Source: Escherichia coli 042 (lineage in GTDB: Bacteria > Pseudomonadota > Gammaproteobacteria > Enterobacterales > Enterobacteriaceae). Taken from it: 64,000 nt of DNA. The notes below the pieces were generated by a model. That model saw nothing but the letters and a program-made list of their open reading frames with translations, made no database searches and had not been told where the DNA came from. The translations under genes and the position numbers were made by a program. Below are positions 2,942 through 25,521 of the stretch, piece by piece (within the stretch, counting starts at the first letter, position 1; every line of letters begins with the position of its first letter). The stretch is taken from assembly GCF_000027125.1 (NCBI RefSeq), contig NC_017626.1. The stretch is one strand, 5' to 3'.

Positions 2942-3706
2942 ATGCGTTCGATTGCCAGACGTACCGCAGTGGGAGCTGCACTATTGCTTGTTATGCCAGT
3001 AGCCGTATGGATTTCTGGCTGGCGTTGGCAACCTGGAGAACAAAGTTGGCTACTAAAAGCGGCTTTTTGGGTTACTGAAACTGTCACCCAGCCCTGGGGC
3101 GTCATTACACATTTGATTTTATTCGGTTGGTTTCTCTGGTGTCTGCGTTTTCGCATTAAGGCTGCCATTATGTTATTTGCCATTCTGGCGGCGGCAATCC
3201 TTGTGGGACAAGGCGTTAAATCCTGGATCAAAGACAAAGTCCAGGAACCACGACCTTTTGTTATCTGGCTGGAAAAAACACATCATATTCCGGTTGATGA
3301 GTTCTACACTTTAAAGCGAGCAGAACGCGGAAATTTAGTGAAAGAACAGTTGGCTGAAGAGAATAATATCCCACAATATTTGCGTTCACACTGGCAGAAA
3401 GAGACGGGGTTTGCCTTTCCTTCCGGTCACACGATGTTTGCTGCCAGTTGGGCGCTGCTGGCCGTTGGTTTGCTGTGGCCGCGTCGGCGAACGTTAACTA
3501 TTGCTATCTTGCTGGTCTGGGCAACCGGAGTCATGGGAAGCCGCCTGCTGCTCGGGATGCATTGGCCACGCGATCTGGTGGTAGCTACGTTAATTTCGTG
3601 GGCGCTGGTGGCGGTGGCAACGTGGCTTGCGCAACGAGTTTGTGGGCCATTAACACCACCTGCGGAAGAAAATCGCGAAATTGCACAACGAGAACAAGAA
3701 AGTTAA
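2942..3706 (+). CDS. pgpB: Phosphatidylglycerophosphatase B (PAP2 family)
   Basis: 254-aa membrane protein with PAP2 motifs (PSGH, SRLLLGMHWPRD); follows ribA as expected. Confidence 0.92.
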   Translation: MRSIARRTAVGAALLLVMPVAVWISGWRWQPGEQSWLLKAAFWVTETVTQPWGVITHLILFGWFLWCLRFRIKAAIMLFAILAAAILVGQGVKSWIKDKVQEPRPFVIWLEKTHHIPVDEFYTLKRAERGNLVKEQLAEENNIPQYLRSHWQKETGFAFPSGHTMFAASWALLAVGLLWPRRRTLTIAILLVWATGVMGSRLLLGMHWPRDLVVATLISWALVAVATWLAQRVCGPLTPPAEENREIAQREQES

Positions 3707-3854
3707 CGCTGGTTGATTTTCCGAATTTAGCCCTTAAATCATCAACAATGCGCGTGGATGCCATTTCGCAGACGGCGCGAAAATGGTACTTTAAAGGGCT
3801 ATTGCGGTAAGTTGACCATAATTTATTCGCTCTAACCACATAACGGGAAGTAAT

Positions 3855-4163
3855 GTGAAATATTTACTCATTTTCTTACTGGTGTTAGCGATCTTCGTGA
3901 TTTCGGTCACGTTGGGTGCGCAGAACGATCAACAGGTGACGTTTAATTATCTGTTAGCGCAAGGGGAGTACCGTATTTCCACATTGCTGGCGGTATTGTT
4001 TGCTGCGGGGTTTGCTATCGGTTGGCTGATTTGCGGCCTGTTCTGGCTGCGAGTTCGTGTTTCCCTGGCGCGCGCTGAACGTAAAATAAAGCGACTGGAA
4101 AACCAGCTTTCACCCGCGACTGACGTGGCTGTAGCGCCGCATTCGTCAGCGGCGAAGGAATAA
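3855..4163 (+). CDS. lapA: LPS assembly protein LapA (YciS)
   Basis: 102-aa small membrane protein, GTG start, directly upstream of lapB. Confidence 0.88.
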   Translation: MKYLLIFLLVLAIFVISVTLGAQNDQQVTFNYLLAQGEYRISTLLAVLFAAGFAIGWLICGLFWLRVRVSLARAERKIKRLENQLSPATDVAVAPHSSAAKE

Positions 4164-23126: not shown

Positions 23127-24545
23127 TTACGCGTTTTTCAACATCCACTCAATTTCTGTTTCTGTGATGAGGCGCTCAAACTGCAACAGCTCATCATTTT
23201 TACAGGCGTGATAGACATGGCAGAAGCGTTCGCCTAAATAGCGGCGCAGGTGATCATTCTCGATAAACTCACCCAGGGCATCGCTCTGACGAATCGGGAA
23301 GGGTAAGCCTTCCTGTTCCAGCCCGTTACCTTCGACTTCTTCCTGTAATGGCAGTTCGTTATCAAGGCCATGCAAAATACCGGCAAAAATCGCCGCCATC
23401 ACCAGATACGGGTTGGCATCGGCACCCGCCACGCGATATTCCACGCGGTGATTATGGCGATCGCCGCACGGAATACGCAGGGCGACGGTGCGGTTGTTAT
23501 GGCCCCACGACGCCTGCGTCGGTACATACATACCTGGCTGGAAGCGGCGATACGAGTTCACGTTTGGTGCCAGCAACGCCATTGATGACGGCATCAGGTC
23601 AATCATCCCGGCAAGCATCTTTTTCAGCAGCGGCGAATCTTCGCCTTCCGCGTCAGAAAGCACGTTCTCGCCACGGTTATTTTGCATACTGATATGGATA
23701 TGCATCCCGCTGCCCGCGTGCTCTTCATACGGCTTCGCCATAAAAGTGGCGTGCATCTTATGCTTTTCTGCCATCAGACGCACCAGGCGTTTTAGTGCCA
23801 GCGCATCATCGCAAGCTTCCAGCACGTTATCAGTATGGTAAAGATTGATTTCAAACTGACCTGGCGAGGCCTCGGCGACCGCGCCATCTGCCGGAATCAG
23901 CTGTAACTGCGCCAGCTCATCAATATCATTAAGCACGTCGGCGAAGTGGTTGAGGTTATCAACGGAGTAAACCTGGCTTTGTGTATTGCGGTCATCGGTG
24001 CCGGGCGCGCAGGGCGGTTGCAGATATCCTTCAGCGTCGCGCTGGCGATCCAGTAAATAGAACTCCAGCTCTACCGCTACGACCGGGAACAATCCGCGCT
24101 GGCGCAGCTGCTGCCACAGGCGGTTAAGAACGTTCCGCGGCTCAACGTCAAAGGGAGCGCCATCTTCATCGACCATGGTCAGGAGCATCTGACCGATAAA
24201 CTCTGGATCGGCGGCAGAAGGGGTTAAGGAACCGAGAACAGGAACACAGGTACGATCCGGCTCGCCCATTTCCTGACCCAGGCCCGCTTCTTCTACTACA
24301 TTACCCAGAATATCCATTGCAAACACCGAGGCCGGGAAATAACACCCTTTCTCGAGCTTCTTCAGGCTTGAAACAGGAATACGTTTTCCACGGAAGCAAC
24401 CATTCAAATCGGTAAGTAAAACATCAACATATTGCGTATTCGGGTAGCGCTCCAGGTAGCGTTTCACTTCCTGCGTAAAGGCGCTACCCCGCCTCTCTTC
24501 TGACTGCTGAACAAAGTTCTCTACTTCAACGATATTGGTTTCCAT
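23127..24545 (-). CDS. puuA: Gamma-glutamylputrescine synthetase (glutamine synthetase family)
   Basis: 472 aa from internal Met (METNIVEVENFVQQ...); GS catalytic-domain motifs. Confidence 0.92.
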   Translation of the reverse strand: METNIVEVENFVQQSEERRGSAFTQEVKRYLERYPNTQYVDVLLTDLNGCFRGKRIPVSSLKKLEKGCYFPASVFAMDILGNVVEEAGLGQEMGEPDRTCVPVLGSLTPSAADPEFIGQMLLTMVDEDGAPFDVEPRNVLNRLWQQLRQRGLFPVVAVELEFYLLDRQRDAEGYLQPPCAPGTDDRNTQSQVYSVDNLNHFADVLNDIDELAQLQLIPADGAVAEASPGQFEINLYHTDNVLEACDDALALKRLVRLMAEKHKMHATFMAKPYEEHAGSGMHIHISMQNNRGENVLSDAEGEDSPLLKKMLAGMIDLMPSSMALLAPNVNSYRRFQPGMYVPTQASWGHNNRTVALRIPCGDRHNHRVEYRVAGADANPYLVMAAIFAGILHGLDNELPLQEEVEGNGLEQEGLPFPIRQSDALGEFIENDHLRRYLGERFCHVYHACKNDELLQFERLITETEIEWMLKNA

Positions 24546-24756
24546 GATTCTTCGCCTTTGGTTTGTTTTCCGCTCGTTATCAAAGCGTAAAATATAATGA
24601 CCACCATTCGAATCTGTATGCAAACTAAATGTTTGTCAAATGTTAAATTGAGTTTGCAAAAATGAAAACCCACTGCTAGATTGAAAAAATATTGAACATA
24701 AAGGTCATTTAAAGCGCAGTAATGGCGATAATTTAGTCCACTTTGTGAGATTGAGC
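24546..24756. promoter_or_regulatory. Divergent puuA / puuD control region with candidate PuuR operator
   Basis: AT-rich divergent intergenic region; inverted repeat atgcaaact...agtttgcaa and tandem aaatgtt motifs. Confidence 0.5.
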
Positions 24757-25521
24757 ATGGAAAATATAATGAACAATCCGGTTATCGGTGTCGTAATGTG
24801 CAGGAACAGGCTTAAGGGTCATGCGACCCAGACTCTGCAAGAAAAGTACCTGAATGCCATCATCCACGCAGGCGGCTTGCCAATTGCGCTGCCACATGCG
24901 CTGGCGGAACCGTCATTACTTGAACAACTTTTGCCGAAACTCGATGGCATTTATCTTCCTGGTAGTCCCAGCAATGTGCAGCCGCACCTATATGGTGAAA
25001 ACGGCGATGAGCCTGACGCCGATCCCGGGCGTGATCTTCTGAGCATGGCGTTAATTAATGCCGCACTCGAAAGGCGCATCCCCATTTTCGCCATCTGCCG
25101 GGGTTTACAGGAACTGGTGGTGGCAACCGGTGGTTCGTTGCATCGCAAGCTGTGCGAACAGCCTGAATTGCTGGAACATCGGGAAGATCCCGAACTGCCG
25201 GTGGAGCAGCAATATGCGCCGTCGCATGAAGTTCAGGTTGACGAGGGGGGATTACTGTCTGCGTTGTTACCTGAATGTAGCAACTTTTGGGTAAACTCTC
25301 TGCATGGACAAGGGGCGAAGGTCGTTAGCCCACGGTTGCGTGTTGAAGCTCGCTCGCCGGATGGCTTAGTTGAGGCGGTTAGCGTCATCAATCATCCTTT
25401 TGCGCTGGGCGTACAGTGGCACCCGGAATGGAACAGTAGCGAGTACGCGCTTTCGCGTATATTGTTCGAGGGCTTTATCACCGCTTGTCAGCACCATATC
25501 GCTGAAAAACAGCGACTCTGA
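24757..25521 (+). CDS. puuD: Gamma-glutamyl-GABA hydrolase (class I glutamine amidotransferase)
   Basis: 254 aa from MENIMNNPVIGVVMC...; catalytic Cys in AICRGLQ. Confidence 0.9.
   Translation: MENIMNNPVIGVVMCRNRLKGHATQTLQEKYLNAIIHAGGLPIALPHALAEPSLLEQLLPKLDGIYLPGSPSNVQPHLYGENGDEPDADPGRDLLSMALINAALERRIPIFAICRGLQELVVATGGSLHRKLCEQPELLEHREDPELPVEQQYAPSHEVQVDEGGLLSALLPECSNFWVNSLHGQGAKVVSPRLRVEARSPDGLVEAVSVINHPFALGVQWHPEWNSSEYALSRILFEGFITACQHHIAEKQRL

Follow-up and report, generated by a model that had tools for sequence, protein, structure and literature searches.

The inverted repeat and the tandem AAATGTT motifs in the divergent puuA–puuD control region of Escherichia coli 042 very probably form the ArcA-P operator of the puuA and puuD promoters, with PuuR most likely acting on four separate boxes. 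A sequence-only reading had proposed both repeats as candidate PuuR operators. The region that it singled out holds up as a control region, carrying PuuR-type boxes as well as mapped promoters, whereas the specific repeats that it proposed are those of the ArcA site.

The puuA–puuD spacer and its repeats

We analysed a stretch of 64,000 nucleotides of the E. coli 042 chromosome (hereafter the window), in which the gene order is sapDCBA-ymjA-puuP-ymjE-puuA and, on the other side of a divergent spacer, puuD-puuR-puuC-puuB-puuE-pspF. The interval flagged in the sequence-only reading, 24546–24756, coincides exactly with this spacer, and its description as a divergent puuA/puuD control region was accurate: the bounds are exact, and the spacer carries PuuR-type boxes and all mapped promoters of puuAP and puuDR. 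The gene boundaries are as follows.

24546–24756: puuA–puuD intergenic control region, a divergent spacer of 211 bp with 34% GC
23127–24545, minus strand: puuA coding sequence, its start codon ending at 24545
24757–25521, plus strand: puuD coding sequence, with the ATG at 24757

Positions 24536–24786 are 100% identical to the corresponding sequence of K-12 MG1655, and experiments carried out in K-12 therefore transfer to this spacer base for base (window coordinates equal those of NC_000913.3 minus 1336363, or those of U00096.2 minus 1334387). The puuA–puuD segment (24300–25000) found a megablast match in 4371 of 5426 complete E. coli genomes, with six of the matches sitting on plasmids; approximately one-fifth of the complete genomes appear either to lack the segment or to carry a diverged copy.

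Both repeats are real features of the sequence. As originally flagged, the inverted repeat consists of ATGCAAACT (24618–24626) and AGTTTGCAA (24651–24659), which are complementary at eight of nine positions; the repeat finder delimits 12-nt arms at 24619–24630 and 24647–24658, complementary at 11 of 12 positions and separated by a 16-nt gap. The AAATGTT copies start at 24627 and 24638, with a spacing of 11 bp. An inverted repeat of equal or better quality arose in 40 of 1000 dinucleotide-preserving shuffles of the 211-bp spacer (p ~0.04), and an exact short-range direct repeat of at least 7 nt in 343 of 1000 (p ~0.34). By sequence statistics, the inverted repeat is weakly unusual and the AAATGTT pair is not unusual; these repeats owe their weight to published binding data and conservation, not to sequence statistics. 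The strongest repeat in the spacer, which went unmentioned in the sequence-only reading, is a three-copy 15-mer family, AAAATATAATGA[A/C]CA / AAAAAATATTGAACA, represented by AAAATATAATGACCA at 24589, AAAAAATATTGAACA at 24684 and AAAATATAATGAACA at 24761. Its best pair was matched in none of 500 shuffles and the triple in one of 500.

The ArcA-P site and the promoters around it

Park et al. (2013) mapped ArcA genome-wide, and ArcA occupancy of this region is experimentally established (PMC3798270). Their Table S4 gives a puuD site with four direct repeats, ATGCAAACTAAATGTTTGTCAAATGTTAAATTGAGTTTGCAAA, at 1359005–1359047, in which DR1–DR4 score 2.6, 2.7, 11.7 and 1.4 bits, respectively. This 43-mer has a single exact match in the window, at 24618–24660, that is, the flagged interval base for base. 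The elements of the site, whose direct repeats are of the OmpR/PhoB type, are listed below.

24618–24660, plus strand: published ArcA-P binding site of 43 bp, four direct repeats DR1–DR4; contains the inverted repeat and both AAATGTT copies
24629–24646, plus strand: ArcA box core, DR2 and DR3, ATGTTTGTCAAATGTTAA, with TGTTT and TGTTA 11 bp apart; corresponds to the AAATGTT pair
24619–24630: left arm of the inverted repeat, corresponding to ArcA DR1; the minus-strand TTGCAT (24623 to 24618) is the proposed −35 element of puuA P3
24647–24658: right arm of the inverted repeat, corresponding to ArcA DR4; contains TTGCAA (24654–24659), the assigned −35 element of puuD

ArcA ChIP peaks lie at 1359011 and 1359020 (window 24624 and 24633), an 18-bp ArcA box of 14 bits, atgtttgtcaaatgttaa, is recorded in the puuA/puuD spacer (Table S3), and the site is placed at −70 to −28 of the puuD start (Table S6) (PMC3798270). 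Within the core, TGTTTGTCAAATGTTA at 24630–24645 differs from TGTTA-N6-TGTTA by a single mismatch. ArcA-dependent repression has likewise been demonstrated: an arcA mutant shows 15.3-fold higher puuA and 10.6-fold higher puuDR expression, and a reduced anaerobic sigma70 occupancy is also reported (PMC3798270, Tables S5 and S6). Compared with the ArcA-P multi-direct-repeat operators of carbon-oxidation promoters described in that study (Park et al., 2013; PMC3798270), the flagged interval is the same locus with an identical sequence and shows no difference. The puuD site shares with these operators its two strong-register TGTTA-type repeats 11 bp apart, accompanied by two weaker flanking repeats, as well as its overlap with promoter elements and its anaerobic repression. 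Our literature search found no DNase I footprint of ArcA on the puuA/puuD promoter. A second, weaker ArcA-like pair, TGTTTTCCGCTCGTTA, with two mismatches to TGTTA-N6-TGTTA, is present at 24564–24579 in the puuA leader; it is probably a chance match because this stretch is poorly conserved (0.60).

The transcription start sites (TSSs) around the site have been mapped experimentally by SMRT-Cappable-seq (Yan et al., 2018; PMC6131387). Supplementary Data 2 of that study lists a forward TSS at 1361051 for b1298 and b1299 (puuD-puuR), that is, window 24688, in agreement with the puuD start implied by the −70 to −28 placement of the ArcA site (PMC3798270, Table S6). Three reverse TSSs are given for puuA (b1297) at 1360995, 1360967 and 1360951, corresponding to window 24632, 24604 and 24588 (PMC6131387). 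The −35 and −10 hexamers proposed for these starts in the list below are our own assignments.

24674–24688, plus strand: puuD promoter, TSS 24688; −35 TTGCAA at 24654–59; extended −10 TGcTAGATT at 24674–82
puuA P1, minus strand: TSS 24632; −35 TTTTCA, 24668 to 63; −10 TAACAT, 24645 to 40
puuA P2, minus strand: TSS 24604; −35 TTGACA, 24639 to 34; −10 CAGATT, 24616 to 11
puuA P3, minus strand: TSS 24588; −35 TTGCAT, 24623 to 18; −10 CATTAT, 24599 to 94

Together, the three puuA promoters span 24588–24668 on the minus strand. The assigned sigma70 hexamers are appropriately spaced and match the consensus at 7–9 of 12 positions. When a −35 element is defined as TTGACA-like and located 16–18 bp upstream of a −10 element, which in turn lies 5–8 bp upstream of a mapped TSS, both arms of the inverted repeat qualify on the proposed hexamers: for puuD, TTGCAA is followed after 17 bp by TAGATT and after a further 5 bp by the TSS at 24688, and for puuA P3, TTGCAT is followed after 18 bp by CATTAT and after 5 bp by the TSS at 24588. 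Relative to the puuD TSS, the ArcA site occupies −70 to −28, consistent with repression by occlusion, and relative to the puuA TSSs it covers −28 to +15 (P1), −56 to −14 (P2) and −72 to −30 (P3), so that, on the assigned hexamers, the 43-bp site would touch a core element in all four promoters.

Myers et al. (2013) independently report a sigma70 ChIP peak at 1359070 (window 24683), with values of 251 under aerobic and 30 under anaerobic conditions (PMC3688515, Table S2), and in genomic SELEX the RpoS holoenzyme also picks out the spacer, the peak lying at window 24653 (PMC5493296). For the puuA–puuD locus, there is no entry in the Cappable-seq supplements of PMC4782308. A generic promoter scan returned only TTGTGA-16-TATAAT at 24743–24770 (10 of 12 matches), where no TSS is recorded and where the TATAAT belongs to the PuuR-type box S4 described below. 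A perfect TATAAT is found in the PuuR box core both here and at 24592–24597, that is, PuuR boxes mimic −10 elements. Separately, two independent data sets point to an internal promoter in puuD driving puuR-puuC at window ~25278–25303: a TSS at 1361666 (window 25303), assigned to b1299 and b1300 and labelled ‘novel’ (PMC6131387, SMRT-Cappable-seq), and a sigma70 ChIP peak ‘within puuD’ at 1359665 in U00096.2 (window 25278; PMC3688515).

Conservation of the spacer across Enterobacterales

Searching representative genomes with PuuR yielded 80 loci, and the conservation footprint is based on 45 distinct Enterobacteriaceae spacers and 14 spacers from Serratia, Hafnia, Erwinia and Pantoea. The arrangement of puuA diverging from puuD-puuR, with a spacer of ~212 bp, is shared by genera from Escherichia to Franconibacter; the spacers are slightly longer in the latter four genera, which possess the same conserved blocks, including an equivalent of the ArcA core. 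Across the 45 Enterobacteriaceae spacers, mean column identity reaches 0.98 in the ArcA core (24629–46), 0.96 in the puuD −35 element TTGCAA and 0.98 in the extended −10 element, and is 0.56–0.65 in the stretches separating the conserved elements.

The arms of the inverted repeat are unequal in this respect, with identities of 0.74–0.80 for the left and 0.91 for the right arm; over 50 Enterobacterales sequences, the ArcA core and the right arm are nearly invariant. Arm-to-arm complementarity amounts to at least 10 of 12 positions in 12 of 44 Enterobacteriaceae spacers and to 7 of 12 or fewer in 19 of 44. It is lost in many genera, with 10–11 of 12 pairs kept in Escherichia, Pseudocitrobacter and Raoultella. 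In 50 distinct sequences, 63.8% of the arm cells are paired, against a shuffled mean of 65.4%, indicating that the symmetry is not conserved, and no covariation between the arms was found: double changes affect two pairs, against 4.8 expected, and 498 of 500 shuffles did equally well or better. We conclude from this alignment that selection maintains the direct repeats together with the promoter hexamers rather than the palindrome.

These patterns bear directly on the possibility that a further dimeric regulator, such as FNR, uses the inverted repeat as its operator and brackets the ArcA box, a reading which we consider improbable. The review PMC9397018 credits Partridge et al. (2006) with the description of FNR and ArcA sites in the spacer, the shuffle statistics make the inverted repeat slightly unusual (40/1000), and its pairing is preserved in the three genera named above. 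However, changes accumulate freely in the left arm, the right arm stays fixed and compensatory changes are absent; the best match to the FNR consensus TTGAT-N4-ATCAA in 24500–24800 has mismatches at 3 of 10 positions, with none centred on the inverted repeat; and the FNR peak and predicted-site tables of PMC3688515 contain no puuA/puuD row, the two names appearing only in the sigma70 table. Consensus scans of 24500–24800 for FNR, CRP, sigma54, NtrC and Nac produced no convincing match within the inverted repeat.

One of the loci recovered, on contig CACSKA010000001.1 (L025; labelled Chryseobacterium sp. 18061), carries puuA-puuD-puuR with a PuuR 95% identical to that of E. coli. Its spacer is almost the same as the one in Citrobacter sp. 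18056, which belongs to the same project, and mislabelling or contamination of the assembly is the probable cause.

PuuR-type boxes, proposed control and significance

The 15-mer AAAATATAATGAACA, which we take to be the 15-bp recognition motif of PuuR from Nemoto et al. 2012, a work in which DNase I footprints of PuuR are said to have been obtained, occurs with at most two mismatches at only three places in the 64-kb window, 24589, 24684 and 24761. These copies lie in three of four PuuR-type boxes, S1 (one mismatch), S2 (two mismatches) and S4 (an exact match), all of which fall outside the inverted repeat, as does the fourth.

S1, 24585–24604, minus strand: GTGGTCATTATATTTTACGC, score 15.6; the plus strand contains the 15-mer family member AAAATATAATGACCA
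S2, 24680–24699, plus strand: ATTGAAAAAATATTGAACAT, score 20.0
S3, 24721–24741, plus strand: AATGGCGATAATTTAGTCCAC, score 13.3; a weaker fourth box
S4, 24757–24776, plus strand: ATGGAAAATATAATGAACAA, score 20.9; overlaps the ATG and first six codons of puuD

S1 runs in the opposite orientation to S2 and S4, thus facing puuA, and covers −16 to +4 of puuA P3 and +1 to +20 of P2; relative to the puuD TSS, S2 lies at −8 to +12, S3 at +34 to +54 and S4 at +70 to +89. The boxes are thus located on or downstream of promoters, as expected of repressor sites such as PuuR operators. PMC9951944, a secondary source, reports that the puuA–puuD spacer holds four PuuR DNA-binding motifs, a number that the four boxes fit, and three of them carry the 15-bp motif attributed to Nemoto et al. 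(2012). From this motif and our independent computation, PuuR most likely binds S1–S4, although the box coordinates given here, above all those of S3, should be regarded as predictions. The coordinates of PuuR sites are absent from PMC9397018, PMC10100776, PMC12645834, PMC9283627 and bioRxiv 2020.04.27.065417, and a literature search for the PuuR motif sequence returned no relevant report.

Aligned in one register, the four blocks yield a common 20-bp box, ATGGACAATATATTGAACAG, self-complementary at 14 of 20 positions, and the consensus can be written approximately as ATGGaCAATATATTGaaCAg, a roughly palindromic sequence of 20 bp. In comparison with the 15-mer, the cross-genus consensus is thus a 20-bp imperfect palindrome, with S1 inverted; this is at odds with a published description of the PuuR site as not palindromic (PMC12645834). 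In 58 related loci, matrix matches of at least 15 bits number 178 inside the spacers and none in 476 kb of flanking DNA, and as the matrix was trained on the same four boxes, the scores inside the spacers are partly circular, whereas the zero outside and the conservation are independent of it. Upstream of puuP, puuC and puuE no extra PuuR boxes were found, the scores there being 11.0 or lower compared with a maximum of 12.9 elsewhere in the window.

Mean column identity in the 45 Enterobacteriaceae spacers is 0.95 for S1, 0.95 for S2, 0.88 for S3 and 0.87 for S4. S3, whose score just exceeds the background maximum of the window (12.9), is conserved across genera as TTGGCAATAATTTAGTCCA (0.88); it is the least certain of the boxes and is supported mainly by this conservation. 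S4 is conserved across Enterobacterales: the N-terminus of PuuD reads MENIMN in E. coli and MGNIFD in most other genera, with the AATATA core of the box invariant, so the operator appears to constrain the N-terminal coding sequence of puuD.

A number of Serratia loci (L058, L059, L062, L064–L066, L068 and L070–L075) contain a second pair of divergent puuA-like and puuR-like genes, without puuD. The puuD-less spacer, ~395 bp long and located at about 3600–4000 in each locus, keeps an S1-like box, an ArcA-like box TGGTTTGCAAATGTTACAAT, CTGCTAAATT, an S2 box and an invariant ATGGGCAATATATTT. The latter corresponds to the old puuD start codon with the S4 box, a relic retained after the loss of the gene. 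In L058, ATGGGCAATATATTT opens an ORF which, judged by eye, has ~41 codons and a stop overlapping the ATG of the second puuR-like gene (ATGA). In our literature search, we found no report of either the embedding of S4 in the first puuD codons or the Serratia relic.

With its HTH_3 and Cupin_2 domains, the PuuR encoded in the window resembles the Pseudomonas regulators PauR, PsdR and ErfA (Trouillon et al., 2021; PMC7901475). XRE-cupin repressors of this type bind palindromes in core promoters as dimers, and, as in the case of PuuR, the neighbouring metabolic genes are repressed from core-promoter palindromes and released by a pathway metabolite (PMC7901475). By contrast, the sequence of the PuuR box is different from theirs, and four boxes are accommodated in a single 211-bp divergent spacer shared with a global redox regulator.

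Against this background, the proposal that the inverted repeat and AAATGTT are themselves PuuR operators, through which putrescine would control both operons, is very improbable, even though PuuR does act within the spacer, where PMC9951944 reports four PuuR motifs, palindromes are favoured by XRE-cupin repressors (PMC7901475) and the inverted repeat sits between the divergent promoters. The interval is the published ArcA-P site base for base (PMC3798270) and is unlike the conserved PuuR-type box, from which both the inverted repeat and AAATGTT differ: the best matrix score in 24606–24660 is 5.6 bits, at background level, as opposed to 13.3–20.9 for S1–S4, and no match to AAAATATAATGAACA with three or fewer mismatches is found there. 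Moreover, four better candidate boxes match the reported number of sites, and the complementarity of the arms is not conserved. A nucleic-acid hairpin, be it an RNA stem-loop (leader or terminator) or a DNA cruciform, can practically be dismissed: the RNA of 24612–24665 folds at −10.5 kcal/mol (z −2.1), a modest value that 5 of 200 shuffles equal, but no mapped transcript holds both arms. Transcription of puuD begins at 24688, downstream of the repeat, and that of puuA at 24632, 24604 and 24588, either within the left arm or beyond it. A search for terminator-like sites was negative, and the arms do not covary.

Returning to the ArcA-P operator, we propose that at low oxygen an ArcA-P dimer binds the core box, that is, the AAATGTT pair, while the arms are the weak outer repeats DR1 and DR4, doubling as the assigned −35 elements of puuA P3 and puuD. 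Full occupancy of the 43 bp would cover the puuD −35 element, the −10 element and start of puuA P1 and the −35 elements of P2 and P3, so that a single ArcA-P array would exclude RNA polymerase in both directions under anaerobic conditions. The complementarity of the arms has a simple potential explanation. Exactly 100 bp separate the puuD start at 24688 from the puuA P3 start at 24588, the midpoint between them falls at the centre of the repeat (24638.5), and the corresponding assigned −35 regions, gtTTGCAa for puuD and gtTTGCAt for puuA P3, are the two arms. We thus infer that the symmetry would arise incidentally, from a pair of similar −35 regions that point outward on either side of the ArcA core, with no palindromic operator involved. 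A more speculative and, in our estimate, rather unlikely extension is a mirror-symmetric switch, in which ArcA-P would spread from the central box symmetrically onto both −35 elements, with graded ArcA-P titrating both operons.

Putrescine control would be exerted separately. Repression by PuuR and its release by putrescine are established in published work, according to secondary sources. PuuR would most likely be positioned on S1 over the −10 element and start of P3, just downstream of P2, and on S2 over the puuD start, whereas S3 and S4 would lie downstream of that start, S4 within the first puuD codons, an arrangement that fits a combination of occlusion and roadblock. PuuR would thereby occlude or block RNA polymerase and depart on binding putrescine.

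Everything important at the puuA–puuD spacer has already been published, and the biology involved is ordinary and known; the spacer is among the better-mapped control regions of E. coli, and outside its correct annotation the present result matters little. Our analysis adds the cross-genus map, including the near invariance of the 18-bp ArcA core across Enterobacterales, the coincidence of the outer ArcA repeats with the proposed opposed −35 elements and the location of S4 in the coding start of puuD. In practical terms, the design of PuuR-based putrescine biosensors, or the mutation of the ‘operator’, should target S1–S4 rather than the palindrome, and the use of the native spacer in such designs brings along ArcA repression. 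What the analysis usefully corrects is the meaning of the palindrome and the tandem motif, which reflect ArcA regulation in response to oxygen and redox state together with promoter geometry, and not the sensing of putrescine. The cross-genus footprint provides a compact, testable map of the constrained bases of the spacer.
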